From the NCBI GenBank assembly GCA_000995065.1, contig LBWX01000002.1, forward strand, positions 62,586 to 126,585: DNA of 64,000 nucleotides, in the 5' to 3' direction. The notes beneath the pieces were generated by a model that searched no databases, was not told where the DNA came from, and saw only the letters and a program-made list of their open reading frames with translations. Made by a program: the position numbers and the translations under genes. Origin of the DNA: a candidate division CPR2 bacterium GW2011_GWC2_39_35. Lineage in GTDB: Bacteria > Patescibacteriota > CPR2. Positions 22,835-62,229 of the stretch are shown one piece after another; within the stretch, counting starts at the first letter, position 1; every line of letters begins with the position of its first letter.

Positions 22835-22977
22835 TTTTGTTTCCTCTACTAAAGCTTATTCTTATTAAATAATAATGCTTGTCTAATAAAATTATACTTT
22901 ATTATAGGAAAGATTTACAGAAATTCTATAATGCTATAATAATAACTAATAAGAATTAAATAAAGAAGTGATGAATT

Positions 22978-23978: not shown

Positions 23979-24239
23979 ATGAAAATAACGGAAATACAAA
24001 TTATCCCGATCAAAGCAAATAACGGCTTAGTTGCCTTTGGCAGTGTTGTTATTAACGATAGCCTATATTTGGCTTCTATTGGGATACACAAGAAGAGAGA
24101 TGGGAGCGGTTATAGGATTACCTACCCCACTAAGAAAATCGGCAATAAAGATATGAATATTTTTCATCCAATCAATAAAGAAACAAGCAAACTAATTGAG
24201 GACGCAATAATATCAAAGGCTAAAGAAATATTAAATTAA
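23979..24239 (+). CDS. spoVG: SpoVG-family protein
   Basis: MKITEIQIIPIKANNGLVAFGSVVINDSLYLASIGIHKK..FHPIN aligns with SpoVG (MEVTDVRLRRV..GRMRAIASITLD..FVVHDIRVI....HPIN). Confidence 0.7.
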   Translation: MKITEIQIIPIKANNGLVAFGSVVINDSLYLASIGIHKKRDGSGYRITYPTKKIGNKDMNIFHPINKETSKLIEDAIISKAKEILN

Positions 24240-24271
24240 TTTAAAAATGTATTTAAGAAAAAAGTAATGAA

Positions 24272-25414
24272 ATGCTGGATACCATAATCTTACAAATTCA
24301 TATTGATAAGTGCTTTATGATTGACTTTAAAATGTTTAACACAACTAAAGAAGAAGTGTTTAATACGAAAACGTCATTTAAAAAATGGATGAATAATCCA
24401 ACGGCACAGGATAAAAAAGATGGGATTTATAAGCCTAGGCTGACGCTAATTAAAAGAGGTAGGGTATTTACTATAACGATTGAATTTTCTGCTCCAAAGA
24501 TAATTTTTAATAATAACTTAGACGAGTTAGAAGAAACTAATTTTGATAACGTTGTTAAAACATTACAGGAACGAATGAAAAGTATGGGAGTATGGATTTT
24601 GACGCTGAACATTGAAGAAGCTGATGTTTTATCTTTTCACCCGTCAAAAAACATAGCACTAAGCGGAGGCTATACGGCAAGTTTTGCAATAAGGGAATTA
24701 AGAAAAATAGATTTAAGTAAAAGGTTTGATCTTGACGAAAAGAAATTTAGAAATGGCGAAATTTTGCAGTTATATACCAAATCTCATTCCTTTGTTCTTT
24801 ACGATAAAATCAATGACCTTAAAAAACCTAAAAGCAGAGCAACAGACAAAGACCGGACACCTCAACAAATAGATTTGTTTGAATATATTCAGAAGGAAAA
24901 CAAAAGACTTGAAGTGTTGAGGCTAGAAGTAAGATTAAGCTCAAAACGAAAAATGAATGAACAATTGGAAAAACTGGGATATGCCCCAAATCCTCCGTTC
25001 AAAGAGATCTTTAAACAAGAATTATGCAAAAAAATTATTAACCAATACTGGAATGATTTTTTTAGCGACAACCAATTTATCTTTAACATCAATAGTAACC
25101 CACAAGATATATTACAGTTGATACTTCGGAGGTATCCAAAGATAAAAATTATAAAAGCTATCAATATTGTTGGCCTTTATTCGCTTTGTAGAGATGAGGA
25201 AGGAATGAGAGGATTTAGAAAAACAATTGATAGCCATAAACCCAAAAGCAATTGGGATACGGTAAAAAAATATATCAAGATGCTTGATGATGAAATTTTT
25301 GCTAATCCTACTTGGAAATTTATACCGGAAATAAAGCAACAAATTGATCGCTTTGAACCTTTTCGCACAGATAATTTATCCACAGAAAATGATTTGATGT
25401 GTAAAGAAAAGTAA
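24272..25414 (+). CDS. hypothetical protein (possible replication/initiator-like protein, guess only)
   Basis: A 380-aa basic protein with no confident motif match. The function is inferred from context only. Confidence 0.4.
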   Translation: MLDTIILQIHIDKCFMIDFKMFNTTKEEVFNTKTSFKKWMNNPTAQDKKDGIYKPRLTLIKRGRVFTITIEFSAPKIIFNNNLDELEETNFDNVVKTLQERMKSMGVWILTLNIEEADVLSFHPSKNIALSGGYTASFAIRELRKIDLSKRFDLDEKKFRNGEILQLYTKSHSFVLYDKINDLKKPKSRATDKDRTPQQIDLFEYIQKENKRLEVLRLEVRLSSKRKMNEQLEKLGYAPNPPFKEIFKQELCKKIINQYWNDFFSDNQFIFNINSNPQDILQLILRRYPKIKIIKAINIVGLYSLCRDEEGMRGFRKTIDSHKPKSNWDTVKKYIKMLDDEIFANPTWKFIPEIKQQIDRFEPFRTDNLSTENDLMCKEK

Positions 25415-25441
25415 AGTATAGTTTTATTTAGGTGTTATTAT

Positions 25442-27538
25442 ATGAACGAAGAATTTTATACAGCCCAAGAGCTAGCCGATAAACTAAAAGTCAATATAAT
25501 GACTATTTATAGGTATATTAACTCTGGGAAATTGAATGCTTATAAAACAGGCAAGGATTTTAGGGTTTCTAAAGAAGATTACGAAGTATTCCTAAAAAAT
25601 AAGCAAAGAAATTTGTTAGAAGAAAAAAATAACCAGATTTTGCAACTCTCCAAAGAGATTGAAAAGCTAAAAAGTAACATTAAAAAGCAAAGGTATGGAT
25701 TGGTTTGGGTAGATGTTCCGGAAGCTTTTGAGGACGATGTTGAAAATAAAATACCTATCCTTAAAGAAGAAAAATCTCTTGCTATTGAAAATAATGACGA
25801 TAAACCAACCCATCTTTTAATTGAAGGTGACAATTATCACGCCCTGACTTGCTTGAATTACACGCATAAGGGCAAGGTTGATGTAATCTATATTGATCCC
25901 CCCTACAACACGGGGAATGACGGATTTAGATACAAAGATAAGCGCATCCTTGATAAATACCCAGACGGAACAGATGTCCCCAAAGATAGCCCCTACAGAC
26001 ACAGTTATTGGTTATCATTTATGAAAAAGAGAATTGAGTTAGCAAAAACATTACTAACGAGCAATGGTGTTATGTTTATTTCAATCGGAAATGACGAAAT
26101 TGCACAATTGAAACTACTTTGCGATGAAATATTCGGGGAAAAAGATTCTCACAATATAATTCACTGGAAGAAGAACCAAAAACCACAGAACGCTTCGAAC
26201 ACAATTTCCGAATCTGCTGAGTATGTTTTAGTATATTTCAACGAGAAGCCTATTAAACTCGTTAGAGGTATGAAGGGAACAAGAACTGATGAAAGAGGTT
26301 CTTTTAAACCCTCTCCTCTCTTCACATTTGATGACAGAAAGAGAAGAACACAAACCGTGCCTAAAGGGACTCCAATTGAGTGCAAGGTATGGAAAAAGGG
26401 CAAACTTCAGGCAGTTAGGAATAAACTTGCCTATCTTAATATCCTTGATGAACCAATTATCAAAAATGGCATTCTGCAGAACGATGTAAGAGTAGATGGT
26501 CAGTGGAGAAAAACGGATACAAATGGTGAGTTTCAAAAAGTAGTAGAAGACAATCGCTTATTCGTTAACTCCAACGGCTTCCCAAATGAGAAGTCTTATC
26601 GTGACGAAGACTCTAAAAATGTTAATACCAATCTATGGCTTAATGCTGGCTATAATGAACTTGGAAAACAGTTATTAGATGAGATTTTAGGGCAAGACAA
26701 TGTTTTTCCTTATCCCAAACCCATAGAACTTATAAAAGAAATACTGAGATCAATAAACAAGCAAGATGCGATTATGCTCGACTTTTTCGCTGGTTCTGGA
26801 ACTTCAGGACACGCGCTATTAGACCTTAACAGAGAAGATGACGGCAAAAGACAATTTATATTAGTCACGGATAATGAGAACAACATAATGTCAGAAGTTT
26901 GCTACCCACGGATAAGAAATGTGATAAATGGATATGATTTTTCTGGAAAAGAGAAACAAGTCCTATTTGAAAAGACACTTACACTTACCGACCTAAAGAA
27001 AGCCGATGCTATATTGGAAGAAATTGACGGTATTACCAAAGAAAACGAAGAGTCAAAGAGGTGGGACAAGATTTCTAAGTCTATTAATGACGGCTTACTA
27101 AAGATGGTCGGAGAGAAGAACATTGAAGATAAGAAGGGTGGTCTTGGCAACTCCGTTAAGTTCTATAGGGCAGATTTCGTAGGTGAAAATAACATAATGC
27201 ACTCCACTGACAAAGATAAGTTAGAGTTAGCCTATAATGCTGGGGAATTATTAGCCATTGCAGAGAATACCCTCTATGAACAAAAGAAAAACCAATACTA
27301 TCAAATTTTTAAAGATAAAGATCGTTTTACTGCCATTTACTTCAGAGAAGAAATGGATGAATATGACGAGTTTATTGAAGAAGTTCGGGGCATTCGGGGT
27401 AAAGAAATCTCTGTTTATGTCTTTAGCTGGGAATCAGACGAGTCTATTTATGAGCTTGAGGACTTGAAAAATGTTCGAATAAAAACCATTCCTCAGCCAA
27501 TAGTAGAAATTTATAAACAAATTTATAACTTGATATAG
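25442..27538 (+). CDS. DNA methyltransferase (Type III Mod-like, beta-class N6A/N4C) with an N-terminal excisionase/MerR-type HTH
   Basis: N-terminal HTH (YTAQELADKLKVNIMTIYRYINSGKL), motif IV (DPPY, within VIYIDPPYNTG) upstream of motif I (DFFAGSGTSGHA). Confidence 0.8.
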   Translation: MNEEFYTAQELADKLKVNIMTIYRYINSGKLNAYKTGKDFRVSKEDYEVFLKNKQRNLLEEKNNQILQLSKEIEKLKSNIKKQRYGLVWVDVPEAFEDDVENKIPILKEEKSLAIENNDDKPTHLLIEGDNYHALTCLNYTHKGKVDVIYIDPPYNTGNDGFRYKDKRILDKYPDGTDVPKDSPYRHSYWLSFMKKRIELAKTLLTSNGVMFISIGNDEIAQLKLLCDEIFGEKDSHNIIHWKKNQKPQNASNTISESAEYVLVYFNEKPIKLVRGMKGTRTDERGSFKPSPLFTFDDRKRRTQTVPKGTPIECKVWKKGKLQAVRNKLAYLNILDEPIIKNGILQNDVRVDGQWRKTDTNGEFQKVVEDNRLFVNSNGFPNEKSYRDEDSKNVNTNLWLNAGYNELGKQLLDEILGQDNVFPYPKPIELIKEILRSINKQDAIMLDFFAGSGTSGHALLDLNREDDGKRQFILVTDNENNIMSEVCYPRIRNVINGYDFSGKEKQVLFEKTLTLTDLKKADAILEEIDGITKENEESKRWDKISKSINDGLLKMVGEKNIEDKKGGLGNSVKFYRADFVGENNIMHSTDKDKLELAYNAGELLAIAENTLYEQKKNQYYQIFKDKDRFTAIYFREEMDEYDEFIEEVRGIRGKEISVYVFSWESDESIYELEDLKNVRIKTIPQPIVEIYKQIYNLI

Positions 27539-27543
27539 GTAAT

Positions 27544-29922
27544 ATGAAACAATTTAATCCATTACAATTTCAGAGAGAAACAATCGATAAGTTATCAGAT
27601 ATTTTTGTTAAGTTATGGAAAGAAGACGGAAGAGCACTGCCTATTGTTTTAAAATCGCCTACTGGTAGCGGGAAGACTTTTATGGCTGCAAATTTAATTC
27701 GCAGCTTAAACCACCTTCCACAATGGCAAGAAGAAAAATCATTTATTTGGATCACGTTTAGTGACGATCTCTCTATGCAAAGTAAAAAGAAATTTGAAGA
27801 GTATTTTGAGAATAACCTTGAAAACAATTTGTTAACTGTAAATGAAATCAACAAGGGAAAGTTATCTAATAATGACATTATATTCCTTAATTGGCAAAAG
27901 ATAGTTTCTAAGAGTGCCGAAACTAGAGTATTAAGAAGGCCTGACGAGGAGATTATGCGAAAAGAGAAAGGGGCGTATTGGGAAGATTTTATTGATGGAA
28001 CTCAGGCCGATGAGAGGGAGATTATTCTTATTATTGATGAAGCCCATAAAAACAAAGGCACAACATTGGCTAAAGAGGTAATTGACTACATAAATCCTAA
28101 GATAATTCTGCACGTCACTGCCACCCCCAGTAAAGAAGATGCATTGGAAGCATATGAGCTTGGATCGATGATAAATGTTGATAGGAAAGAGGTTGTCGAA
28201 GAAGGATTGATTAAAGAAAAGATTGTCATTCAAACGGAAGAAGATCTTGAGAGGCATCAAGGGCAAGATTTTGATAAAGTCCTGCTTGATCTTGGAATCC
28301 AGAAAAGAAACGAACTAAAAGAAGAGTTAAAGTCTCTAGGTAAAGATATTAACCCTTTGATGCTTATACAATTACCTAATGATGACAATAAATTGATCGA
28401 GATGGCTAAGGAAACTAAAGAGTCTGTTGTTTGTGATTACTTAAAAGAAGTTGGAATCCCTGAAACAAAAATTGCTAAATGGTTTGATGGTAGACAGGAA
28501 AATATGGATTTAATAACTGAAAATGATAGTGACGTTGAAGTTATGTTATTTAAACAAGCGGCTGGGACTGGTTGGGACTGTCCCAGAGCCTCCGTCCTCA
28601 TAATGTTTAGGGAGATAAAATCAAATACATTTTATACCCAAACAGTTGGCCGAATATTAAGAATGCCTGAACCTGAATTAAAAGAGGATTATAAGAATAA
28701 CGAAAACTTGAGAACTGGTCATTTATATACCAATTACAAGCGTAATGAGGTTGAAATACCAGACCAATCAGCAAGGAACAAACCTTTTGTCAACTTTTCG
28801 AATATTAAAGAAGGCGTAAAAAATATTTCGTTACAGTCAGAGTATATTTCTCGAGTTGATTATGGAGACATCCCAAGATCTTATAAATTTCAAAAAGGCT
28901 TTATTGATTCGATGAATAGATATTTTGGTATAACGCAGGATGATATTTTGGGAAAAGCTCAAAGGAAATTAGAGAATAAGGGAATTGATTTAGATGGAAA
29001 GCTAACGAACCAGATTATTGTAAACGCAAAATTTGAAGATTTTGATCATTTGAATTATGAATTTAGTAAACAAGGTAAGGATCTTGAAATTGAAATGTCC
29101 ACTAATGATGTTGAGAAAACTTTTAATTATATCTGCTATCAACTTTTGCAGGAGCAAGACAACGAAAAAGCAAAATACACGAATATTGCAAGATCTTGGA
29201 GCACTATTAAATCGGCGATAAGAGTCTGGCTAAACCATACAGTTAGCGAGAATAGCGACCATTTTTATAGAATTTTTGTTAAGGACATAAATAAAGGTGC
29301 TTCAAGCAAATTTAGACCAGCAATAACACAAGCCTTGATTGACTTTAAGCCATTATGTGAACAAATAATCAACGAAAGAAAAGTTGCTCACGAGCAAAAG
29401 GAAGCACCTATTTTTTCTATTCAAGGTCAATATTCTTTCACTGAAGATTACGAAGAAATATCCCAGAAGATTTGCGCTCTCGGCAAATTTTATCTACCTA
29501 AAAAAGATTTTAAAGGAAAAAAGAACGAATTAGACTTTAAGGATTATATAGATAACCTAGATGATTCAATTGATTGGTGGTTTAAAAATGGAGATTATGG
29601 CAAATCTTATTATGCAATTAAATATTTTAATTCAACCGACAATAAGGAAGCTCTCTTTTATCCTGATTGGATAATTTTATTCAAAGATGGACGAATTGGG
29701 ATTTTTGATACCAAAGAGGGAGAAACTGCCAAATCTCAGGAGACTAAAGATAAAGCAGGCGCATTAGCACAAAAGTTAAATGATTTTGGATCTGGCTATG
29801 TTGGCGGTATTGTAGTTAAAGTTTCCGGAATCTGGTATTACAACGACACTTCAAGTTATGATTTCCGAGACGGTAATATTGAGCAAGATAAAAATTGGAA
29901 GAGATTTGAAGAGCTCTTATGA
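27544..29922 (+). CDS. Type III restriction enzyme Res subunit (SF2 helicase plus C-terminal PD-(D/E)xK nuclease)
   Basis: Helicase motif I (PTGSGKTF), motif II (IIDEAHKN), motif III (TATP), motif VI (QTVGRILR), and a C-terminal PD...D-x-K (YPDWIILFKDGRIGIFDTKEG). Confidence 0.75.
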   Translation: MKQFNPLQFQRETIDKLSDIFVKLWKEDGRALPIVLKSPTGSGKTFMAANLIRSLNHLPQWQEEKSFIWITFSDDLSMQSKKKFEEYFENNLENNLLTVNEINKGKLSNNDIIFLNWQKIVSKSAETRVLRRPDEEIMRKEKGAYWEDFIDGTQADEREIILIIDEAHKNKGTTLAKEVIDYINPKIILHVTATPSKEDALEAYELGSMINVDRKEVVEEGLIKEKIVIQTEEDLERHQGQDFDKVLLDLGIQKRNELKEELKSLGKDINPLMLIQLPNDDNKLIEMAKETKESVVCDYLKEVGIPETKIAKWFDGRQENMDLITENDSDVEVMLFKQAAGTGWDCPRASVLIMFREIKSNTFYTQTVGRILRMPEPELKEDYKNNENLRTGHLYTNYKRNEVEIPDQSARNKPFVNFSNIKEGVKNISLQSEYISRVDYGDIPRSYKFQKGFIDSMNRYFGITQDDILGKAQRKLENKGIDLDGKLTNQIIVNAKFEDFDHLNYEFSKQGKDLEIEMSTNDVEKTFNYICYQLLQEQDNEKAKYTNIARSWSTIKSAIRVWLNHTVSENSDHFYRIFVKDINKGASSKFRPAITQALIDFKPLCEQIINERKVAHEQKEAPIFSIQGQYSFTEDYEEISQKICALGKFYLPKKDFKGKKNELDFKDYIDNLDDSIDWWFKNGDYGKSYYAIKYFNSTDNKEALFYPDWIILFKDGRIGIFDTKEGETAKSQETKDKAGALAQKLNDFGSGYVGGIVVKVSGIWYYNDTSSYDFRDGNIEQDKNWKRFEELL

Positions 29923-31427
29923 AAGCAATAATCTTGGCCAGAGTTTCAACTGAAGAACAAAAGGAAGCAAATCACTCATTGCCAGCCCAATTAATAAGAT
30001 TGCAGAAATACTGCCAAGAGAAAAAACTGGATGTAGTTAAGGAATTTAGTTTTGACGAATCGGCTTGGAAAACCGAAAGGCAGCAGTTTGAGGAAATTGT
30101 TGAAATGCTTCAAAAATCAAAGGAAAAGATGGTTTTGTGTTGTGATAAGATTGATCGTTTAACAAGAAGCTTTAGTAAAGAATTAGTTACTCTAGAGGAT
30201 TTAAGAAGAACTGGCAAAATTGAACTACATTTTCCTTCTGATAATATCGTTTTGCATAGAGATTCACCTGCCACCGATTTATTTAGATTTACGATGGGCG
30301 TAAGCCTTGCCAAATACTATTCCGATACTACAAGCGATAATGTCAAAAGAGCCAACGAAACTAAAATTAAAAATGGCGAATGGGCTGGCTGGGCTCCAAT
30401 TGGCTACATCAATACAGAAGACGAAAAGGGTAATAAAGATATAGAAGTTGATGAGATAAGAAGCCCCTTTATTATAAAAATGTTTGAGCTATATGCTTCA
30501 GGTAACTATTCAATGAGGCAAATTAAAGAACAATTGGACAAGGTAGGACTAAAAAGCAAATCAAAAGACCCAAAACCCTTAACCATAAGTATGGTAAAAC
30601 ATACTCTAAACAACCCGTTCTATTACGGAATAATGAGGATTAAAGGCGAATTATATCCTCATAAATACCCTCCGCTAATTACTAAGCATTTATTTGATAA
30701 GGCCCAAGCGGTTAGTGCCGGATGGCATAAAAAACCCTTTAAATATGCCGCTAAGCCCTTTGTTCTTCGAGGCATGATAAAGTGTGCTGATTGCGGTTGC
30801 ACAATCACCCCTGAGACCTCTAAGGGGCATGCATATTACAGTTGCACCAACTATCACAGGATTCATCCAAAAAGGATTTACGTCAAAGAAGAAGACCTTT
30901 TAAAACAAATCTATGAAATTTTGGATAATATTCAATTAACAGACGAGCAAATAAAAGAGTTAACCGAGGACTTAAAGCAAACGAACAAAGCTGAGAACCG
31001 TTTCTTTAAGAACAGCGTTCAAGAATTATGGAAAGAATACAATAGATTTGAAAATCGTATTAGTAAGCTCACGGATGAAAAATATGACGGTAGTATTACT
31101 GAGGATTTCTACAACAAAAAGTTTAAGGAATATACTGAAAAACAATCTAAAATGATGGAAAGTATAAACAAACATCATAAGGCTAATCAAGAGCATCATA
31201 TTACTGCAAATAGTATCTTAAACCTTGCCAAACGAGCTCGTGAAATATTTGAAAGTTCTGAACCGGCAGAAAAAAGGCAATTATTAAATTACATACTTCA
31301 GAACCTAGAATTGAAGGACAAAAAACTCTTATATAAAGCAAAAACACCGTTTGATACGATGCTTTTGATACATGATAGTTCTAACTGGCTCCCGGGGTCG
31401 GATTCGAACCGACGACCAATTGGTTAA
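29919..31427 (+). CDS. large serine recombinase (resolvase-domain integrase)
   Basis: N-terminal resolvase catalytic region (AIILARVSTEEQ), a recombinase domain, a zinc ribbon (CADCGCTITPE...YYSC) and a coiled-coil C-terminus. The ORF overlaps the Res gene by 4 nt and runs into the tRNA-Asn gene. Confidence 0.85.
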   Translation: MKAIILARVSTEEQKEANHSLPAQLIRLQKYCQEKKLDVVKEFSFDESAWKTERQQFEEIVEMLQKSKEKMVLCCDKIDRLTRSFSKELVTLEDLRRTGKIELHFPSDNIVLHRDSPATDLFRFTMGVSLAKYYSDTTSDNVKRANETKIKNGEWAGWAPIGYINTEDEKGNKDIEVDEIRSPFIIKMFELYASGNYSMRQIKEQLDKVGLKSKSKDPKPLTISMVKHTLNNPFYYGIMRIKGELYPHKYPPLITKHLFDKAQAVSAGWHKKPFKYAAKPFVLRGMIKCADCGCTITPETSKGHAYYSCTNYHRIHPKRIYVKEEDLLKQIYEILDNIQLTDEQIKELTEDLKQTNKAENRFFKNSVQELWKEYNRFENRISKLTDEKYDGSITEDFYNKKFKEYTEKQSKMMESINKHHKANQEHHITANSILNLAKRAREIFESSEPAEKRQLLNYILQNLELKDKKLLYKAKTPFDTMLLIHDSSNWLPGSDSNRRPIG

Positions 31428-31460
31428 CAGCCAACTGCTCTACCACTGAGCTACCCGGGA
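31386..31460 (-). tRNA. tRNA-Asn (anticodon GTT)
   Basis: Minus-strand sequence TCCCGGGTAGCTCAGTGGTAGAGCAGTTGGCTGTTAACCAATTGGTCGTCGGTTCGAATCCGACCCCGGGAGCCA folds into a cloverleaf with GTT in the anticodon loop. Confidence 0.85.
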
Positions 31461-41801: not shown

Positions 41802-42902
41802 ATGCAAGTCAGTGTACTAAAAGAAAATTTAAGTAAAGCACTTAACACGGTAGGGAGAATTGTCAGTACAAAAGGATCATTGCCTGTTTTATCCCATGTC
41901 TTAATTAATACGGAGGATGGAAGGCTTAAATTATCCAGCACAAATCTAGAATTAGGTATTACTTATAAGATAGGTGGTAAGGTTGAAAAAAATGGCAGCA
42001 TTACGGTCCCCTCTCGGCTTTTTACTGATTTTGTAAATTCTCTTCCTAATGAAAAGATAGACTTAACCTTAAAAGAGCTTACTTTAAAAGCTAAATGTTC
42101 TAATTATAACTCTGAAATCAAGGGACTCTCCTCCGATGAATTTCCTTTAATTCCTAACGTAAAGGAAAATAAGGTTTTAAGCATTGATTCTAAGACTCTA
42201 AAAGAAGCCATTAGATTGGTTTCATTTGCTGCGGCTGTAGACGATGCTCGTCCGGTGCTTTCCGGAGTTTATTTTAGCAAAGAAGGAAAAAGGCTTACTT
42301 TGGTTGCAACCGATAGTTATCGGCTGGCCGAGAAAGCCGTAACCCTTACTAAAGATTCTAAAACAGACTTTTCTATTATTATTCCGGTCAAGACGATTCA
42401 AGAATTGTTTAAGATAATAAGTGATTTGGAGGGAGAGGTTGAAGTCTATCTAAGCGATAATCAAATTCTTTTTGAGATTGATGGCGTCGAACTTATGTCG
42501 CGGCTTATCGAAGGTCAGTTTCCAAATTATAAACAAATTATTCCCGATTCTTCGGAAACCAAAGCTACCGTAAATAGCGCTGAGTTTGTAAATGCGCTAA
42601 AGGTAACTATTCTTTTTGCCAAAGAGAACGCTAATACGATAAATGTTCAGATTAATCCGAAAGGCAAAATTGAACTTCAGGTGGAAGCTAACCAGATCGG
42701 AAGCAGCGATTCTTTTGTGGAAGCGGATGTCGAAGGAAAAGGCGGCGAAATTTCGTTTAACGGCCGATTTCTTGCCGATGCGTTGCAAAACATCAGCTCC
42801 AAAGACGTAACTTTGGAAATCAGCAGCAAATTAACGCCTGGCATTGTAAGAGCTAAAGAAATTAAGGATTATACGTATATAATAATGCCACTACGAAGCT
42901 AG
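41802..42902 (+). CDS. dnaN: DNA polymerase III beta sliding clamp
   Basis: A 366-aa three-domain beta clamp (MQVSVLKENLSKAL...). Confidence 0.9.
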   Translation: MQVSVLKENLSKALNTVGRIVSTKGSLPVLSHVLINTEDGRLKLSSTNLELGITYKIGGKVEKNGSITVPSRLFTDFVNSLPNEKIDLTLKELTLKAKCSNYNSEIKGLSSDEFPLIPNVKENKVLSIDSKTLKEAIRLVSFAAAVDDARPVLSGVYFSKEGKRLTLVATDSYRLAEKAVTLTKDSKTDFSIIIPVKTIQELFKIISDLEGEVEVYLSDNQILFEIDGVELMSRLIEGQFPNYKQIIPDSSETKATVNSAEFVNALKVTILFAKENANTINVQINPKGKIELQVEANQIGSSDSFVEADVEGKGGEISFNGRFLADALQNISSKDVTLEISSKLTPGIVRAKEIKDYTYIIMPLRS

Positions 42903-43047
42903 AAAAAAAGTTCTAATTGATCTAATTTCTATTATCTAATAAAATCCCAATCAATAAATGACCAACGTCCAAAAAAAAATTTAGTCATTTTGCTATTTAA
43001 TCATTCTTTAGGTCAATTAGAGAATTAGAAATTAGGAATTTAAAATC

Positions 43048-44133
43048 GTGTCTCTAAAAGCAATAGCCTTACAAAATTATAGAACCTATGCCAAAGCTTC
43101 TGCCGAACTTAGCGGCATTAATGTTCTAATTGGCGCCAATACTCAGGGGAAAACCAATTTTTTAGAAGCTATTTCGTATCTTACCTTTGGCAAATCTTTT
43201 CGTTCTTCGGATCGGGATCTTATAAAATGGGGCGAGGATTTCTTTAGGATTGAAGCCACAACTTCCGAAAATAAGAAAATCGAAGTTTTTTATAGTTTGA
43301 ATCCTCAAAAAAAGATGGTTAGGATTGATAATCAGGCGAAGAAACAGTCCGAATTATTCGGCCACAATTTGGCCGTTCTTTTTAGTCCGGAAGACATTAA
43401 TCTAATAGCAGCGCCACCGGAGAAGAAAAGGCGTTATTTAGATATGATAATATCTCAGGTTGATAAGCTATACTTAGTGGATCTGATTAGCTATAAAAAA
43501 ATATTAAAACAGAGGAATTCGCTTCTTCTAAGAATTAGAGAAGGAAGCGGCGGCACAAAGGAACTAGAGGTGTGGTCGGAAAAACTAGTTGAAAGAGGCT
43601 TGCCACTTATACAAAAACGCCATGAATTTTTTATAGATTTCGAAGAGGATTTAAAAAAAGCTTATAGAAATTTTGGGGAGCAAGATTTGTGGCTAAAGTT
43701 TGTAAGCAGCACTCCAAATTCCAAAGAAGGTTTTGAAGCAGCGCTTAAAAAGGCGGAGGCGACAGACATTGTTAGCGCTAAAACCTCTCTGGGGCCTCAC
43801 AGAGACGATTTTGTATTTTATCTGGAAGATAAGGAGATAGAAAGCATTGGATCCAGAGGAGAGTTCAGAAGTGCCGTTTTAGCCCTAAAGCTAGCAGAGA
43901 TTAAGTATCTCGAAAAAAAGACCGGCAAAAAAGCAATATTTCTCCTGGATGATGTTTTCTCGGAGCTGGATGAATCTAGGAGGGATGCGTTGTATAATCT
44001 GATAGGAGATTACCAGACCATTATTACAAGCACGGACTTAGATCATTTAAGTGAGGAGCTTCTAAAAAAAGCAGCAATATTTAAAATAGAGAATTACGAG
44101 ATAATTAATCAGGAAATAGGAAATAGGAAATAG
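43048..44133 (+). CDS. recF: DNA replication/repair protein RecF
   Basis: Walker A (GANTQGKTNFLEAI) in an SMC-like ABC ATPase of 361 aa. Confidence 0.9.
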   Translation: MSLKAIALQNYRTYAKASAELSGINVLIGANTQGKTNFLEAISYLTFGKSFRSSDRDLIKWGEDFFRIEATTSENKKIEVFYSLNPQKKMVRIDNQAKKQSELFGHNLAVLFSPEDINLIAAPPEKKRRYLDMIISQVDKLYLVDLISYKKILKQRNSLLLRIREGSGGTKELEVWSEKLVERGLPLIQKRHEFFIDFEEDLKKAYRNFGEQDLWLKFVSSTPNSKEGFEAALKKAEATDIVSAKTSLGPHRDDFVFYLEDKEIESIGSRGEFRSAVLALKLAEIKYLEKKTGKKAIFLLDDVFSELDESRRDALYNLIGDYQTIITSTDLDHLSEELLKKAAIFKIENYEIINQEIGNRK

Positions 44134-46866: not shown

Positions 46867-48642
46867 TTACTTTCCCTCCATCTCCAAAACTTGCTTTGGA
46901 TTTGTGGTTACAATTTGATCTTCCAAGTACGAGGCCATCATCTGGATTGCCACGTGGTTAAGGCCGGCAAAGAATAAACCTTCTCCAACCTCGGCGTTCA
47001 AAAGAAAATATTTTTCGGCTTCGGTGAGGTTAAAAGTCTTAACAACCATGTCTACGGCGGCCGGATGCTGTTTTAAAAGAAGCGATAAGGAAGAGTTGGT
47101 AACAATCGCTTTGCCATAAGGAGAACCCAAAAAGTCTTCCACGTCTTGGCTGATGGTAGTAAGCCCCAAATAATATTTTCTGGCTCTTTTGGCAATGCTG
47201 AACAAGAACTGGGCGGAATCCTCATGTTTTAATAAGTACCAGGCCTCGTCTACCACCAATATTCGGCGGGTCATCTCGGATTTTACTTTGTTCCAGATAT
47301 AATTAAGAACGATATACATGGCAATCGGCCTTAACTCGTCTTCCAAGTCCCTAATGCTAAACACGACAAACGGGTTGTCGAGATTTATATTAGTTTGTTC
47401 GTTAAATAGGCCGGCGAAAGACCCGGAAGTAAACTTTCGAAGCATAAGGGCTAGTTCATTACCGCCGGTAATGCTTAAAAGCACTCGTTGCAAATCTTCC
47501 ATGGTTGGTGGTTTAAGGTGATGGGTCGAGGGGTCGCTGGTGATGCCTTTTGAGGCATAAGTTTCGATAAGCGCCTTATCTAGGATGTCGTCCTGTTTGG
47601 CATCAAGTTTACCAAAAATAAGTTTCATTAATCCGTGAAGAGTAATGACATTCGATCGGAGAGCATCTCGGCTATCCTCCTTGTTTGCCAATTTCGGCAG
47701 GTCAAAAGGATTGATGCGCTTTGGTGAGTTTAAGGATAAGTTTAGATAACTCCCGCCGACGGCATCGCAAAGCTTTTTGTACTCATTTTCGGGGTCGATT
47801 ATTATAACTTCCGTGCCAAGCATCAGGCTTCTTAATATCTCTAATTTAACGGAATAAGATTTACCGGCGCCCGCTTTGGCCAGGACTACGGAATTGGCGT
47901 TTTCGAGATCAAACCGATCGAAAAGAACCAAGCCGTTATTGTGCCTATTAATTCCGTATAGAATGCCGGTATTAGAAGAAAGCTCGGAACTCACAAAAGG
48001 AAAACAGGTGGAGAGGGCGGATGTGTCCATGTTGTGCAGAATTTTAAGCTTGTCTTTACATAGCGGCAGACATGAATCAAATCCTTGCTCTTGTTGGAGG
48101 TTAGCTTGTTTTACGTAAACAAGCTGGGAGTTTAAAGCGCTTTCCAATTGCTTGGTGGCTTCATCCAGTTCTTCTTTTTCTTTGGCATAGATTGTAAAAT
48201 ATAGGGCAAAATGGAATAGCTTGGATTCGCCGCGGGACAATAAATCTCTTAGAGCTTCTATATCTTGATAAGCTGTTTCTAATTGCGGATCCCGAGGCAA
48301 ACCTTTTTGCGCCTCCATGGTAGCCCGAGACTCAATCTGTCCCACCTTATTTTTTAAGGTTTTCATGATCATCGCCGTATCGATGGGGTAGATAAAAAGC
48401 GAAGTATCCATTGTGATATCAAAGTTGATGATCGGGCTTAGCCACTCCGTGTATAAGTATCTGGGGTAAGTTAAAACAAAGAATGACCTTACGTGGTAAT
48501 TGCCAAGGCGAAGATAATTAAAATTAATCTCAAAAGCTTCGGGGGCAATAATATCCCGTAAGGTAGTTATCCCCTCGCGGTAAACCCTCTGAGCCTCCTC
48601 GATCTCGGCAAAATGATTGTCTTGTTGTTTTTTTCTAAACAT
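46867..48642 (-). CDS. VirB4/TrbE/CagE-family conjugal transfer ATPase
   Basis: Walker A (LAKAGAGKSYS) and Walker B (VVDEAWYLL) in a 591-aa protein. Confidence 0.85.
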   Translation of the reverse strand: MFRKKQQDNHFAEIEEAQRVYREGITTLRDIIAPEAFEINFNYLRLGNYHVRSFFVLTYPRYLYTEWLSPIINFDITMDTSLFIYPIDTAMIMKTLKNKVGQIESRATMEAQKGLPRDPQLETAYQDIEALRDLLSRGESKLFHFALYFTIYAKEKEELDEATKQLESALNSQLVYVKQANLQQEQGFDSCLPLCKDKLKILHNMDTSALSTCFPFVSSELSSNTGILYGINRHNNGLVLFDRFDLENANSVVLAKAGAGKSYSVKLEILRSLMLGTEVIIIDPENEYKKLCDAVGGSYLNLSLNSPKRINPFDLPKLANKEDSRDALRSNVITLHGLMKLIFGKLDAKQDDILDKALIETYASKGITSDPSTHHLKPPTMEDLQRVLLSITGGNELALMLRKFTSGSFAGLFNEQTNINLDNPFVVFSIRDLEDELRPIAMYIVLNYIWNKVKSEMTRRILVVDEAWYLLKHEDSAQFLFSIAKRARKYYLGLTTISQDVEDFLGSPYGKAIVTNSSLSLLLKQHPAAVDMVVKTFNLTEAEKYFLLNAEVGEGLFFAGLNHVAIQMMASYLEDQIVTTNPKQVLEMEGK

Positions 48643-48708
48643 CAGTCGCTTTCACTATGATTTTATATCTCTATTATAACTCGCTATCTCAAAACTCAAA
48701 ACGCAAAT

Positions 48709-49185
48709 GTCAAAACAGTATCTCTCTAAATCCAAATGTCAAAGCTCAAATTTCAAATGAATGTCAAATGCTTAAATATTAAAACTAGCTGTTCCTTATA
48801 ATGCTTGAAAATATTAAAATTAATTCTTGTGCTTCTTTCCATAAATTCCGAGATTGTTCTTTTAGATTAGGATTGGCTACCTGAATCATTCTTAACCAAT
48901 GTTTGGTCTCTTTAGCTTCTTTTTTGCAAATACTTATCTTGTGTTTAAACTCTTTTTTAGACTCTGCCCCATCGGCTTCACAGTAATTGGCCCCAATGCT
49001 AGTTGCTGATCTAACTACCTGAGAGATTAAAGGCAGTGATATTGGGTCTTTTGACATTAAACGAGCAAATCTAATTATATCTTCTCCGAATAAGGCTGTT
49101 CTTTCTTCTAGATCATATTTGGCATTAGTGCTTTGGATTTGATTTGACATTTGTAATTTGGATTTTGACATTAAATTTTTTTAGC
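48709..49185. mobile_element. small element carrying the four-helix-bundle gene between terminal inverted repeats rich in CAAATGTCAAA/TTTGACATTTG
   Basis: The left arm (48709-48775) is the inverted complement of the right arm (49124-49185). Gene-less derivatives lie at 49953-50091, 57558-57740 and 58505-58697. Confidence 0.6.
48785..49171 (-). CDS. four-helix-bundle protein (the TIGR02436-like family encoded in 23S rRNA intervening sequences)
   Basis: FGEDIIRFARLM...SIGANYCEADGAESKKEFKHKISICKKEAKETKHWLRM is the hallmark of this family. Confidence 0.75.
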   Translation of the reverse strand: MSKSKLQMSNQIQSTNAKYDLEERTALFGEDIIRFARLMSKDPISLPLISQVVRSATSIGANYCEADGAESKKEFKHKISICKKEAKETKHWLRMIQVANPNLKEQSRNLWKEAQELILIFSSIIRNS

Positions 49186-49908
49186 CTATATTTCCATCAA
49201 CTCCGTTCCTTCGGGCTTATCTTCGGCGGCCGTTATTATGTTATTCGTTATCTGATCCACAGCTACAAGTTTTTGATTTTGAGCAGTGTCGGGGTTGTAG
49301 CTCGCATAGAATAAATCAATTAATTCCTGTGTGTCTAAAGAGGCGCACCTAAGCTCCATGCCGCTTAGCTGGCCGACTACTACATCCACCCTTTGCATAA
49401 GCTGAATTCGGTTTTCCTCAAAGTTTCCCATATGTACCGGGCCGTTTCCGGCTGGCTTAATGGCGTCTTTTATTTTACTCGCAAATCCGCTAGTTGCCTG
49501 AACTACGTTGGGGTAAAAGGGCACGACTACAAAAAATTTCTTGTCCATAATGTTGGCTACCTCCAAAAGAGATTCGATAAAGGATATGTAGGCGTTTGTT
49601 TGGTCTCTGAGCTGCGGGTTTTTCTGTTTTTTGGCCACCTCGTTCATGTTTTTCATGTAATCTCTTAAGTCCAAGCGCCTTGACCTTATAAGCACTTGAA
49701 TATCAAAAGTGAGGTAATTTAAGAAATTTTGAAAATTAAAGATGATGGCGTCTTTTTCCTTTTCGGATTTTAAGGCAAAATTGACGGACGATACCATCAG
49801 AACGGCTCTTAGCGACCCGTCTTTTAAAACCACCACTCCGTCATGAATCTCCGCAATATCCAAATATTGCTGGGTGCTGGGTCTTTTTGTCTTGCTAGTA
49901 TTAGCCAT
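49186..49908 (-). CDS. hypothetical protein within the T4SS-like cluster
   Basis: A 240-aa protein with no TM segment, positioned between VirB4 and the VirB3-like gene. Confidence 0.4.
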   Translation of the reverse strand: MANTSKTKRPSTQQYLDIAEIHDGVVVLKDGSLRAVLMVSSVNFALKSEKEKDAIIFNFQNFLNYLTFDIQVLIRSRRLDLRDYMKNMNEVAKKQKNPQLRDQTNAYISFIESLLEVANIMDKKFFVVVPFYPNVVQATSGFASKIKDAIKPAGNGPVHMGNFEENRIQLMQRVDVVVGQLSGMELRCASLDTQELIDLFYASYNPDTAQNQKLVAVDQITNNIITAAEDKPEGTELMEI

Positions 49909-49952
49909 GGTTAAATTCTAACAGAACGGCTGATGAGATGCAAAGGGCTTTA

Positions 49953-50091
49953 AAATCCAAAACAGTATCTCTCTAAATCCAAATGTCAAAGCTCAAATTT
50001 CAAATGAATGTCAAATGCTTAAGTGCTTAATTTTTTTAACATTAGTGCTTTGGATTTGATTTGACATTTGTAATTTGGGTTTTGACATTAA
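49953..50091. repeat. gene-less MITE-like derivative of the four-helix-bundle element
   Basis: The first ~65 nt are identical to 48712-48775. The right arm retains the first ~17 codons of the 4HB gene (MSKPKLQMSNQIQSTNV) followed by a stop. Confidence 0.65.
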
Positions 50092-50128
50092 TATTGTTAA
50101 ATTGGTAATTGAAAATTAAAAGATACGA

Positions 50129-50857
50129 TTATTTTTTTGCTTCCTTATTCCCCGTATAGTTTTTCGCCATTTGGATGATGTCGTCATCTGCTAGCTGCAT
50201 CTGATCGGAGTAGTATTTAAAGTCTTTTTTAGGGTCGACGGTGGCGAGGTCGGAGACGGAAGGCTCGGTAGCCATCTTTGGCTTGTGGTGTTCGGCAATT
50301 TTCTCTAGGTATTCTAAAACCATGCCTTTTTTACCTCTTACTTTGTCCTCTAGGGGGTCAATTAGCGTAGTGTCTTCCTTGGTTTCGGTGCCGGGAGAAA
50401 TAACCCTTTTGGCATTGTTATCAATACCCTCTTTGCCCCAGCCTTGATTGTCCACAATCCTAGCTAAATTTTCCAATTGGCTTCTAGCCGGCGGCTCTTT
50501 CGCCACTATTTCTTTGCTTTTATCCTTATTTCCTATTTCCTGCTTCCTATTTCCTGCTTCTTGTACTTCCCTGCTCCAGATTCTTTGGCGGGGTTTTACA
50601 AAGAAGCTAATGGCTGATGCGAACATGACGTCCATGGGCCGGTCGTTTGGTTTAAAAAATCCCAGCATGCCGGCAATAAGCCAAACGGGGCTTATGATGA
50701 AGGCAAAGATAAAGAGGTTCTCGGGATTAATAATCTTGTAGAGGATGGCCGTTACGGCAAAAGCGGCAAATAAAAACATGAACTGCCGCAGGGTAAGCGG
50801 CCCTATTACTTTATCTTCTATATCGATGTTTTCGGGGACTCTATATTGTAGGGACAT
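50129..50857 (-). CDS. VirB3-like (PrgI/TcpD-like) membrane protein with a C-terminal hydrophilic extension
   Basis: An N-terminal two-TM hairpin after a short cytoplasmic segment, located next to VirB4. An (AGGAAAT)-type heptad repeat sits inside the gene at 50523-50557. Confidence 0.45.
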   Translation of the reverse strand: MSLQYRVPENIDIEDKVIGPLTLRQFMFLFAAFAVTAILYKIINPENLFIFAFIISPVWLIAGMLGFFKPNDRPMDVMFASAISFFVKPRQRIWSREVQEAGNRKQEIGNKDKSKEIVAKEPPARSQLENLARIVDNQGWGKEGIDNNAKRVISPGTETKEDTTLIDPLEDKVRGKKGMVLEYLEKIAEHHKPKMATEPSVSDLATVDPKKDFKYYSDQMQLADDDIIQMAKNYTGNKEAKK

Positions 50858-57468: not shown

Positions 57469-57557
57469 TATGTACCCTCCTTAGTTCATAATTTGAAATC
57501 TAATATTATTTTACGAGATATAAGCCAAATTGCAAGGTTTTTTATAGCAACAGAAGA

Positions 57558-57740
57558 ATTAAAATCCAAATGCCAAAGTTCAAATTCCAAATGAATGACC
57601 AATGACTAAATTTTAAATTTTTAAGCATTGAGAATTAGGCCTTCGGATCTGAGGTCTTCGACCGTGAGGCTCAGACCGAATCGGCTCAGGCTCGAAGAGG
57701 CTTAATTTGGCATTTGGAATTTGAGCTTTGACATTTATAT
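57558..57740. repeat. MITE-like element related to the 4HB-element arms, with a GC-rich structured core
   Basis: AATCCAAATGCCAAAGTTCAAATTCCAAATGAATG and its inverse AATTTGGCATTTGGAATTTGAGCTTTGACATTT flank a GC-rich hairpin at 57640-57700. Confidence 0.55.
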
Positions 57741-57783
57741 GTACTGTGTAGAAGTAATATCATTTTAGGCCTATAATACTTAT

Positions 57784-58504: not shown

Positions 58505-58697
58505 GGTTAATGTCAAATGACAAAATCCAAATTTCAAATGAATATTAAATGAATTAATGTCAAATAATTACAATCTCCTTATTCTTTTAAATAAATCTAA
58601 AAAGAGTTTCATGTTTTGACCATTCATATTTTTGTATTACTTAAGATTTGGAAATTAGAATTTGATTTGATATTTGACATTTGAGCTTTGACATTAA
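58505..58697. repeat. MITE-like element related to the 4HB-element arms
   Basis: AATGTCAAATGACAAAATCCAAATTTCAAATGAATATTAAATG...TTGATTTGATATTTGACATTTGAGCTTTGACATT. Confidence 0.55.
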
Positions 58698-60588: not shown

Positions 60589-60678
60589 GGAAGGGTGGCA
60601 GAGCGGACGAATGCGGCAGTCTTGAAAACTGTTGAACTCGCAAGGGTTCCGTGGGTTCGAATCCCACCCCTTCCGCCA
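60589..60678 (+). tRNA. tRNA-Ser (anticodon TGA)
   Basis: GGAAGGGTGGCAGAGCGG...CTTGAAA...GGGTTCGAATCCCACCCCTTCCGCCA, with a long variable arm and TGA in the anticodon loop. Confidence 0.8.
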
Positions 60679-60792
60679 TTTGTATATTATAATTAAGATG
60701 GTTTTTAGCAGAAAATTTGATAATATAGTGAAAAGATTAAAGAAGTTAATTACCATAATTTTGACCTTTGATTTTTAACTTTTGAAATATTC

Positions 60793-60887
<95 letters not shown>

Positions 60888-61109
60888 TTACGCCGATGGG
60901 GCGGAAAATGCCCTTCGCAGCTCTATACGCCCGGCCTTCGTAGCCACTTCGGCGGAGTAGGCAAGTAGGGCTCTGTCCAATTTTTGCAACAAAGTTTTAA
61001 AAAATAGCTTCAAATGGCAAGCCAGCAAATCATAATAATTTTGCTTATTGAATAAAATACTAAAGATTTCCGCGGAGGCGGAATTTTTATGTAAAAACTC
61101 CTATTCTTT

Positions 61110-61155
61110 CTTTATTCCCTCTCCCTTGAGGAAGAGGGTTGGGGTGAGGGGGGGG
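61110..61155. repeat. CCCTCTCCC/GGAAGAGGG hairpin followed by TTGGGGTGAGGG (copy B)
   Basis: A homolog of 44265-44300, lying upstream of the gene at 61245. Confidence 0.45.
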
Positions 61156-61244
61156 TAGGATGACAAGTTTGGCTGATGCATAAAATAGAGTACTTTAAAA
61201 AACTACAGTTGCCGAATTTTGAGGATTAGTGCTAATATTAGATT

Positions 61245-61754
61245 ATGGCAGAAGAAATATCTTCAAATGAGCAAACCGAAACCGACGAGACTAATCGACC
61301 AATTTTAGCGTGGGAGACGCATGAGTTTTCGCATTTTGATCGGGGTAAAGTTTGGTATATAGGCATAGGGACGTTTTTTGTCATCCTAATCGGTTATTTT
61401 GCCTTTTTTAGACAGTGGACATCGGTATTTGTTTTTATTGCTTTGGCAATAGTGTTATTTAGATTTATTAAATCCGAGCCGGAGTACGTGTCTTGTGAGA
61501 TTCTGGATGCCGGAGTGAGATTTAATAATCGGTTTTATAGCTATGGGGATTTGCACTCTTTTTCTATTGCTTACAATGACGCTACCAAATTTCTACAGCT
61601 ACTAACCAACTATCGCTATATGTATGCTATTAAAATCCCTCTAAGTAATGATGTTAATCCTTTAGATGTTAGGGAGCTTCTAGTAAGACATATTCCAGAG
61701 CAGCCTTATGAGGAAGATTTAATAGATAAGGTGTCAAAGTTCTTAAAGATTTAG
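61245..61754 (+). CDS. hypothetical membrane protein
   Basis: Two TM helices after an acidic N-terminus. Confidence 0.4.
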   Translation: MAEEISSNEQTETDETNRPILAWETHEFSHFDRGKVWYIGIGTFFVILIGYFAFFRQWTSVFVFIALAIVLFRFIKSEPEYVSCEILDAGVRFNNRFYSYGDLHSFSIAYNDATKFLQLLTNYRYMYAIKIPLSNDVNPLDVRELLVRHIPEQPYEEDLIDKVSKFLKI

Positions 61755-61918
61755 GACTTCGTGTTTTTTTTACACTAACTAGAGGTCAATTTAAGCACAA
61801 ATAGATAGTTTTTTTTTAACACTAAGTGTGTTAATTCATCTTAAATCTAAAGATTTAATTAAAATAAAGCAAGTAGTTAGTGTATTTTTGTCACTAAGTA
61901 CTTACGGTTGATGTGTAT

Positions 61919-61994
61919 GCCCCTGTAGCTCAGTGGATAGAGCGCCAGCTTGCGGAGCTGAAGGTCGCCCGTTCGAGTCGGGCCAGGGGTACCA
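61919..61994 (+). tRNA. tRNA-Arg (anticodon read as GCG; one mismatch in the anticodon stem)
   Basis: GCCCCTGTAGCTCAGTGGATAGAGCGCCAGCTTGCGGAGCTGAAGGTCGCCCGTTCGAGTCGGGCCAGGGGTACCA. Confidence 0.65.
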
Positions 61995-62138
61995 GGGACA
62001 GCTAAAAATTTAAAGTTCAAATTGCAAAGTTACAAAGCAAAACTGTAGAAGTAATGAATTTATTATCAAATTGTTCCACGTGAAACAATCTGAAGGTAGT
62101 AGCGAAAAGTTATGGGCTATAAGTGACCGCAGGTCCAT

Positions 62139-62229
62139 GGAGAGGTGTCCGAGTGGTTGAAGGTGCCGCTCTCGAAAAGCGGTGGGGGCCAAAAGCTCCT
62201 CGTGGGTTCGAATCCCACCCTCTCCGCCA
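62139..62229 (+). tRNA. tRNA-Ser (anticodon CGA)
   Basis: GGAGAGGTGTCCGAGTGGTTGAAGGTGCCGCTCTCGAAAAGCGG...GGGTTCGAATCCCACCCTCTCCGCCA. Confidence 0.8.

Follow-up and report, generated by a model that had tools for sequence, protein, structure and literature searches.

A 64-kb stretch of the genome of the candidate division CPR2 bacterium GW2011_GWC2_39_35, called the window in the following, contains a small gene for a four-helix-bundle (4HB) protein which lies between two inverted arrays of heptanucleotide repeats, in the gap between two genes of an operon resembling those of type IV secretion systems (T4SS). What kind of element do this gene and its arms, together designated E1, represent? 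The first-pass annotation had proposed a mobile element with terminal inverted repeats and a derivative of the kind called a miniature inverted-repeat transposable element (MITE). Of this proposal, the placement of the 4HB gene on a small element was sustained, as gene and arms were found to form one conserved and horizontally distributed unit of the kind known from the intervening sequences (IVS) of 23S rRNA. The assignment to the transposons was not, since no target-site duplication and no transposase were identified and 92% of the cassettes lie in sense orientation in operons. In the reading preferred here, with a probability of about one half, E1 would be a promoterless cassette of the IVS type, which is expressed by read-through of its host operon and whose arms form a stem of the kind cleaved by RNase III.

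The 4HB gene and its heptad arms

E1 is located between the TraC-like gene and the gene for the VirB4-like ATPase (coordinates of all elements are listed in Table 1). Its 5' arm begins 9 nt past the stop codon of the TraC-like gene and holds the start codon and codons 1-17 of the 4HB gene, and its 3' arm begins 9 nt past the 4HB stop codon. A second, short copy, E2, was identified between the PrgI-family gene and the TraC-like gene, both copies occupying intergenic gaps of the T4SS-like operon, as had been stated before. The 47-nt string described as shared by the two is present at 48724-48770 and 49971-50017. Between E1 and E2, the identity of the left arms is 100% over 65 nt (48711-48775 and 49958-50022), and that of the right arms is 91% over 64 nt (49118-49181 and 50035-50098). 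While it was correct that both copies share these arms, the arms within an element fall short of the exact reverse complementarity proposed and are imperfect inverted repeats, with a complementarity of 84-88% over 25 nt and 73% over 40 nt.

The arms consist of degenerate heptads (ATGTCAA, AGCTCAA and ATTTCAA, for example, follow one another), and the array is broken by one 11-mer, AATCAAATCC. The spacing of CAAA in the arms of the window peaks at 7, 14 and 21 nt and at 18, 25 and 32 nt. With at most one mismatch, the motif AAATGTCAAA occurs 35 times in the window compared to 13.2 ± 3.3 times in shuffled sequences, none of 100 shuffles reaching 35. Five elements with heptad arms (E1-E5) were identified in the 64 kb, among which only E1 has an intact 4HB gene and E2-E5 are gene-less; 23 of the 35 occurrences of the motif fall in four of them (E1-E4). 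When an arm profile derived from other genomes was used in nhmmer, nine of the ten arms of E1-E5 were matched with E-values between 1e-11 and 4e-3. The tenth, on the right side of E5, was matched weakly (E=1.6), and just two further weak matches were obtained in the 64 kb. That the arms might be parts of promoters or terminators, a possibility which the first-pass annotation had itself raised, was checked and rejected, since the respective consensus sites are no more common in 48550-50200 than in shuffles; the best promoter-like site in this region points antisense.

The gene between the arms had been recognised correctly as coding for a 4HB protein. The protein is 100% identical to P0001, which is UU65_C0002G0194 of the CPR2 bacterium GW2011_GWC1_41_48. 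Because the public gene call starts at Met8 and gives a protein of 121 amino acids, the full open reading frame (ORF) of 128 amino acids is absent from the exact-sequence records. In the AlphaFold (AF2) model, with a mean predicted local distance difference test score (pLDDT) of 87.8, residues 1-18 are disordered (pLDDT below 50) and are followed by a confident bundle of four helices at residues 21-126. The earlier observation that the right arm encodes the first 17 codons of the gene was confirmed, and for annotation it is relevant that low-complexity N-termini of 4HB proteins (of the MSNDKIQMSNQ... type) are translated arm, outside the fold.

The nearest solved structures are 2RLD and 2GSC, entries with five chains each, while Avd of the diversity-generating retroelements (DGRs) is more distant. 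By analogy to the solved relatives, the 4HB protein probably forms a pentameric nucleic-acid-binding ring. No transposase domain was identified in the protein; PF05635 is its only Pfam match, the bAvd model PF22296 giving none. PADLOC and PHROG gave no match, and with that no defence or phage family. Among 21 sequences from different phyla which are 63-73% identical to the protein of the window, 43 columns are invariant, which indicates a protein under selection.

Conservation, orientation and turnover of the cassette

The family to which the protein belongs is large: one protein search gave at least 7,999 clusters at 90% identity, and a second search gave 7,242 representatives at 50% identity. 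Among the matches listed, members which are 63-77% identical to the protein of the window were found, the few with a named source including a Methanoperedenaceae archaeon, a Nitrospirae bacterium, Komeilibacteria and Candidatus Paceibacterota. An odd N-terminus, MTNDKAQMSNQAQNPNDK…, is common to these members.

For the analysis of conservation, the best 80 genome loci of the 4HB subfamily were used, 78 of which were testable for inverted arms by comparing the ~56 nt which immediately precede the conserved YDLEERT codon with the ~60 nt after the stop codon. Inverted arms were present in 76 of the 78 loci, with a median score of 19 compared to 9 for direct-orientation and shuffle controls. These loci belong to the Candidate Phyla Radiation (CPR), Planctomycetota, Chloroflexota, Nitrospirota, Cloacimonadota and others; for the 4HB family as a whole, this layout was encountered in at least eight phyla. 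The arms also fold better than controls: mini-hairpins made of the arms gave a mean of -35.5 kcal/mol compared to -20.4 kcal/mol, with a better value in 73 of 76 loci.

The match to the element's own second arm (24.5) exceeds that to arms from other loci (18.1). The core of the heptad varies by lineage (CAAAT, CTAAT, CGAAT), and both arms are of the same heptad class in 62 of the 66 elements for which both could be classed. The class tracks the lineage of the protein, the identity being 0.655 within a class and 0.603 between classes. Since the heptad type goes with the protein lineage, ORF and arms must have shared their inheritance over long times. Built of other heptads, this layout was also identified around distant 4HB paralogues (34-38% identity; L057, L080, L085 and L134) and around a degraded one in L092. 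An arm pair is not necessarily accompanied by the gene, as 24 of 98 arm pairs are without a 4HB gene.

Distant paralogues are likewise present on plasmids of cultured Cyanobacteriota, Bacteroidota, Spirochaetota, Bacillota and Chloroflexota, where 13 copies with the same inverted-arm layout were found, 12 of them scoring above every shuffle. In four of these copies the arrays are perfect, with four repeats on each side (L171, L175 and L212) or with four and five (L210). The arms are (TTCAAAA)4…(TTTTGAA)4 in Nostoc flagelliforme, (GTAATTC)4…(GAATTAC)4 in Dolichospermum and (CAATTCG)4…(CGAATTG)4 in Nostoc ATCC 53789, and the heptads GTCGGAG/CTCCGAC are used in N. punctiforme. The heptads are thus wholly different between lineages, yet matching between the two arms of one element.

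With respect to the neighbouring genes, the 4HB cassettes have a strongly preferred orientation. They are co-oriented with the upstream neighbour in 69 of 75 cases (92%, p=1e-14) and with the downstream neighbour in 67 of 74 (p=2e-13), and 60 of 73 cassettes lie between two genes on their own strand. The start codon is placed at the inner end of the 5' arm, and the stop codon is followed directly by the 3' arm. The spacing is tight: the 5' arm begins at a median of ~14 nt after the upstream gene, the first in-frame ATG follows the upstream stop codon at a median of 32 nt (14 nt in E1), and the downstream gene begins ~78 nt after the 4HB stop codon, just past the 3' arm. In addition to TraC-like/VirB4 in the window, the closely spaced units hosting a cassette include E1alpha/E1beta and HsdS/HsdR. 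Others are an adaptor and permease of the resistance-nodulation-division (RND) type, helicase/methylase, csx2/cas1, and the avd and reverse transcriptase (RT) genes of a DGR.

Several of the host loci were recorded individually. In CRISPR-cas loci, a cassette separates cas2 from cas1 on the Anabaena cylindrica plasmid pANACY.01 (L176), where it has the rare antisense orientation, and another separates csx2 from cas1 on Pseudanabaena pPg_04 (L177). Type I restriction-modification and helicase/methylase operons contain cassettes in L175, L206, L207 and L211. In a type IV pilus operon of Kuenenbacteria (L022), two cassettes with different heptad types are present at 2990-3480 and 4900-5420, and the ORF of the second is interrupted by a stop codon in frame, this copy being probably in decay. 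The DGR cassette (L178, 989-3641, JGI Ga0376497_007315) belongs to the same subfamily, has CAAAT arms and is situated between the true avd gene and the RT gene, with a weak Y1-transposase-like ORF downstream of it. On plasmid pNsp_c of Nostoc sp. ATCC 53789 (L212, 564-1460), the (CAATTCG)4 cassette lies between a 76-aa fragment annotated as DNA cytosine methyltransferase and a hypothetical ORF of 92 aa, and may have inserted into a methyltransferase gene now decayed, or next to one.

A comparison of insertion sites, as suggested in the first-pass annotation, revealed that one and the same operon junction may be occupied by the element in one genome and not in a related one. The order PrgI, TraC-like, VirB4 is kept in about 70 related operons, and in none of them was a 4HB gene identified between the TraC-like and the VirB4 gene. 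The two closest relatives (L091 and L092, with a VirB4 81% identical) carry other arm elements at the E1 junction. In L091 this is an arm-only element, whose 5' arm resembles that of E1 at ~80%, a value estimated by eye and not computed. In L092, a different arm type encloses a 4HB gene of another subfamily, of which only the N- and C-terminal parts are kept between the arms. Deletion of the ORF, as postulated before, does therefore occur, and the path from ORF-bearing to ORF-less forms is real. Both relatives have further arm elements in the neighbouring gap, one with a GC-rich interior which is not 4HB and is like that of E3. In a more distant lineage, an arm-only element is present at the same junction in L154, L157 and L162, and the relative L169 has a gap of 41 nt. 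A filled and an empty site were identified in L065 and L061, where a segment of ~405 nt with an arm pair is present in the former and absent from the latter, with flanks 95-98% identical. An apparent further variant, in L006 (~2100-2140), was rejected, since the scaffold has a gap there, filled with Ns, which coincides exactly with the repeated arm of E2; this N run illustrates that heptad arms break or confuse short-read assemblies.

Exact-sequence look-ups of P0001, P0014, P0020 and P0052 placed each protein at a single site on all contigs carrying it. No 4HB relative was detected among the 2.9 million viral contigs of IMG/VR, and GenBank phages gave two weak matches. Transposition of the cassette appears to be rare. 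Candidate origins of new copies are a route through RNA and the recombination or conversion of heptad arrays with one another.

A proposed stem-loop cassette and the alternatives

That IVS elements with S23p ORFs and inverted repeats exist is already known, and has been since the early 1990s, their function and spread being unexplained. Architecture, conservation, orientation and presence or absence of the cassette described above were read directly from the sequences; its transcription, cleavage and translational coupling are proposed from the Coxiella work and from geometry. The cassette would be transcribed by read-through from the host operon, and the arms would pair in the transcript to give an A/U-rich stem of 25-55 bp with the ORF in the loop. 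This stem would be a substrate of RNase III, as was shown experimentally for the Coxiella IVS, and its cleavage would release the RNA of the cassette without damage to the cistrons on either side, so that insertions in tight operons and in rRNA would be tolerated. The start codon would be buried in this stem, shortly after the stop codon of the preceding gene, a position suggestive of coupled translation: ribosomes which terminate at that stop codon, located in E1 14 nt ahead of the ATG, may unwind the stem and thereby permit translation of the 4HB gene.

For Coxiella, the 23S IVS was described to have a terminal inverted-repeat stem and, immediately preceding the S23p ORF, heptamers (GACAGAT) in tandem, the first of which is the site cut by RNase III (PMC4990558). 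In CPR bacteria, 23S_rRNA_IVP ORFs have been recorded in 16S and 23S insertions (PMC11270868). The S23p-type IVS of Leptospira, Coxiella, Brucella, Xanthomonas and CPR share with the cassette a PF05635 ORF in an inverted-repeat stem loop, the tandem heptamers before the ORF, a sporadic distribution which looks horizontally spread, and decay of the ORF to ORF-less forms (PMC4990558, PMC11270868). Correspondingly, the cassette of the window has an ORF of the 4HB family, inverted repeats able to form a long stem, and 5' heptamers. Unlike the IVS, which are inserted in helix 25 or 45 of 23S rRNA, the elements of the window are located between protein-coding genes; moreover, the window has an intact ORF with strong conservation, in contrast to that of Coxiella, which is in decay and probably not translated. 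The rRNA copies appear to be a special case of a general sense-oriented operon cassette.

Integron cassettes offer a second comparison, as they also combine a promoterless ORF, an imperfect inverted-repeat site, uniform orientation and expression from an upstream host promoter. In the present case, however, no integrase, attI or cassette array exists, and inverted repeats, built of heptad arrays, flank both sides of the ORF.

A number of observations weigh against the IVS-type cassette. A scan for conserved motifs placed none of the best 80 loci in an rRNA gene, the sole candidate, L035, giving no Rfam match, and the Rfam scan of the window returned tRNAs and no rRNA match, its elements sitting between protein-coding genes and not inside a helix of 23S or 16S rRNA. 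The link to the IVS is accordingly one of architecture and protein family, not of an observed rRNA copy. Excision by RNase III is proven for IVS in rRNA only, and for the copies in operons it would follow by analogy. The folding energies also point the other way: on the transcribed (minus) strand, E2 folds no better than shuffles (z=-1.4), compared to z=-4.9 for the antisense strand (the plus strand, -45.4 kcal/mol), for E1, too, the strand antisense to the gene folds clearly better, and over 76 loci the antisense strand has a slight advantage (p=0.006). This small advantage probably results from freer mutation of the non-coding arm. The arm mismatches comprise 321 transitions and 520 transversions and show no excess of G:U, so that selection for pairing at the RNA level is not demonstrated, and the arms could act as DNA equally well. 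Finally, the bias for sense orientation could reflect directional insertion rather than a need for expression by read-through.

Of the alternatives, the one which survives best, and which we nevertheless consider unlikely, regards the heptad palindromes as hairpins of the host, namely terminators or signals stabilising or processing mRNA, similar to REP/BIME or to the STRR repeats of cyanobacteria, in which the ORF homes or is captured; E2-E5 would then be empty sites. Such hairpins would explain why, in a window not chosen for its 4HB gene, arm-only elements outnumber the ORF-bearing one 4:1, and why the loci collected by VirB4 hold several arm-only pairs while the 4HB gene of the subfamily was found only on the window strain's own contig. 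They would also fit with the filling of whole gaps by all five elements of the window, which leave almost nothing of the intergenic space, with E4 at a convergent gene end, with the other cargo between some arms (E3, L092), and with the finding that E2 retains nothing of the gene beyond the arm-encoded codons. Against host hairpins stand, however, the connection of heptad type and protein lineage and the two arm types, CAAAT and CTAAT, in one genome, which correspond to at least two arm lineages. Furthermore, the divergent promoter gap of E3 and the sites of E2 and E5 inside operons are not positions of terminators, and the ORF of L092 is decaying in place by internal deletion.

REP/BIME, REPIN-RAYT and MITEs such as Correia and ERIC resemble the elements in being short, imperfect, intergenic palindromes with gene-less copies, and these known elements are co-transcribed with their neighbours and can be RNase III or terminator-like structures. 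They differ in that the cassette has no RAYT, no transposase and no target duplication, that its period is 7 nt, that its cargo is a small, non-enzymatic helical protein, and that the identity of copies within one genome is low except for E1/E2. No RAYT (Y1) transposase was found in the annotated parts of the window, and the one weak Y1_Tnp match lies 2 kb from the L178 cassette.

The STRR repeats, heptanucleotide tandem repeats of cyanobacteria, were reportedly described by Mazel and co-workers in 1990. The heptanucleotide arrays flanking the plasmid-borne 4HB genes are of the same kind. Tandem 7-nt repeats in intergenic position are common to both, and the 4HB genes of Nostoc, Dolichospermum and Planktothrix are flanked by perfect arrays; in the window, intergenic 7-nt tandem arrays with a period of 7/14/21 likewise agree with the definition of the family, and perfect arrays occur in the Nostocales copies. 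In contrast, STRRs are described as gene-less repeat families, and the arms of the window are degenerate, with a conserved 11-mer.

That E1 is a DNA transposon, with arms serving as terminal inverted repeats with multiple sites for a transposase provided in trans and with E2-E5 as non-autonomous MITEs, was judged decidedly unlikely. Inverted arms built of repeated short motifs do resemble multi-site transposon ends. Within the 64 kb the arms of E1 and E2 are 91-100% identical and those of E3-E5 divergent, arm-only elements are frequent among the arm pairs, L065 and L061 provide a filled and an empty site, and the mismatches of the arms, with no wobble excess, are like neutral divergence of DNA. 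However, a target-site duplication was absent at E1 and E2, where the bases outside of the shared segment differ on both sides, and no clear one was found for L065/L061. The 4HB protein is the only ORF between arms, and no transposase was identified near the elements of the window or in the neighbourhoods shown, the sole recombinase belonging to a separate tRNA-Asn island. The sense bias is unexpected for cut-and-paste insertion, and the varied heptads would need a cognate transposase in each lineage. In addition, the four 4HB proteins looked up exactly are each present at one site, and the element was not found in the viral contigs searched.

The third alternative, mobility through RNA, in which the 4HB protein as a relative of Avd would act with an RT in trans to copy the stem-loop RNA into transcribed regions, is very improbable: while the fold resembles Avd 4DWL and 8UBE (target-normalised template modelling score 0.73-0.76, with weak E-values), the sense bias and the lack of target duplications fit, one member lies within a DGR between avd and RT, and known relatives occur in rRNA (PMC4990558; PMC11270868), no RT was found in the window or next to cassettes in the neighbourhoods viewed except for that one DGR with its own Avd (PF22296), the protein of the window matches PF05635 only, the orientation bias is explained equally well by selection for expression, and evidence for a cDNA step is absent. 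The similarity to Avd thus covers the four-helix-bundle fold and the Pfam neighbourhood. It does not extend to the surroundings, since the 4HB gene of the window has T4SS-like neighbours with no RT, template or variable repeat adjoining, and the L178 cassette is an extra gene beside the true avd.

Beyond E1, an extension of the IVS-type reading is doubtful: TIGR02436/PF05635 genes outside of DGRs might in general be cargo of one selfish class of cassettes with inverted heptad arms, riding on operons and rRNA, whose 4HB ring would recognise or maintain the arms by excision, protection or copying. If true, the 23S rRNA IVS, the cyanobacterial STRRs and thousands of orphan 4HB genes would come under one mechanism with no conventional transposase. 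Few of the small genes in metagenomes that still lack an explanation are as common as those for 4HB proteins, and the cassette may give the STRR heptanucleotide repeats a biological context. A literature search in an incomplete library, so that earlier descriptions may exist, returned no account of a heptad-arm 4HB cassette in operons, of the orientation rule or of the tie to heptanucleotides, and no paper linking STRRs to 4HB genes or inverted pairs. As cyanobacteria available in culture, such as Nostoc punctiforme PCC 73102 (pNPUN01, 162.6-163.1 kb) and Anabaena cylindrica PCC 7122, contain the cassette with perfect arms, the system is open to experiment.

Gene-less elements and surroundings in the window

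Table 1. Heptad-arm elements of the window and their parts (positions are those of the 64-kb stretch)
Feature	Position	Strand	Description
E1 5' arm	49116..49177	-	A-rich heptad array on the sense strand of the gene; nhmmer arm profile E=1e-10; inverted repeats I1/I7
4HB gene	48785..49171	-	128 aa; PF05635 1.2e-15, TIGR02436 9.5e-22, matching from residue 24 on
E1 3' arm	48711..48776	-	T-rich heptad array on the sense strand; nhmmer E=1e-6 for 48727-48776; repeats D2, I1/I7
Outer heptad remnant	48686..48717		Just upstream of the VirB4-like start; family D1, inverted repeats I3/I4; weak nhmmer match, E=5
E2, arm-only	49958..50098		Between PrgI-family gene and TraC-like gene; arms 49974-50022 and 50033-50093; 10-nt interior
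E3	57551..57741		Arms 57551-57609 and 57700-57741; nhmmer 8e-7 and 2e-4; divergent gap between HSP20 and ComF-like genes
E4, arm-only	58505..58697		Fills convergent gap between ComF-like gene and T2SSE/MshE ATPase gene; nhmmer 1e-7 and 5e-7
E5, arm-only, CTAAT heptads	42897..43060		Fills dnaN-recF gap; nhmmer 4e-3 and 1.6

The assignment of E2 is based on its repeats D2 and D3, which are 100% and 91% identical to the E1 arms, on repeat I6 with a complementarity of 88% over 25 nt, and on nhmmer matches of its arms at 2e-6 and 1e-8. As had been noted before, E2 retains the first 17 codons of the gene (MSKPKLQMSNQIQSTNV), which are followed by eight unrelated codons and a stop, and no sequence of the gene beyond the arm-encoded part is present. 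E2 may be a deletion derivative of E1, or it may be an older or unoccupied hairpin with arms copied or converted from E1.

Arm-only variants had been reported at 57558-57740 and 58505-58697. Both were confirmed as E3 and E4; the count was incomplete, as the fifth element, E5, had been missed. The interior of E3 (57610-57700) is a GC-rich (~60%) branched hairpin of ~65 nt between arms of the CAAAT type, in a genome with 39% GC, and E3 folds at -66.6 kcal/mol on the plus strand (z=-5.3). For this interior no Rfam match and no second copy in the window or in the collected loci were found, and neither E3 nor E4 gave an Rfam match at E up to 1. L092 (2471-2860) has an interior of similar kind, likewise rich in GC and foreign in appearance, in which GTCATTCC...GGAATCCAG palindromes occur. 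In E5, the GTG start codon of recF lies inside the right arm, and the arm hairpin has -23 to -27 kcal/mol compared to -16.7 ± 2.1 kcal/mol for shuffles. Remnants of the 4HB gene were sought inside E3, E4 and E5, and none was convincing. E2-E5 are best explained as gene-less relatives of E1, either decayed cassettes or unoccupied hairpins.

The outer heptad remnant next to the 3' arm of E1 is common to the relatives L091 and L092, and for this reason it is, by sequence comparison, probably an older layer or part of the promoter region of VirB4. The T4SS-like operon is encoded on the minus strand and was found by Pfam to contain T4SS pilins, TrbL_3, PrgI, the TraC-like gene and the VirB4-like ATPase; the region adjoins dnaA, dnaN and recF. 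GC skew could not be used for the orientation of replication, as the profile tracks the coding strand.

At ~22000-31460 of the window, an island of low GC content (0.32-0.35) with strong positive GC and AT skew was identified, which contains genes for an HTH-N6/N4 DNA methylase, a type III restriction res-subunit helicase and a large serine recombinase, the latter ending at tRNA-Asn (31386-31460). The island is probably an integrated element with a restriction-modification system. A cluster of three tRNA-Ser genes (tga, gct and cga) and one tRNA-Arg gene (gcg) is present at 60589-62229.

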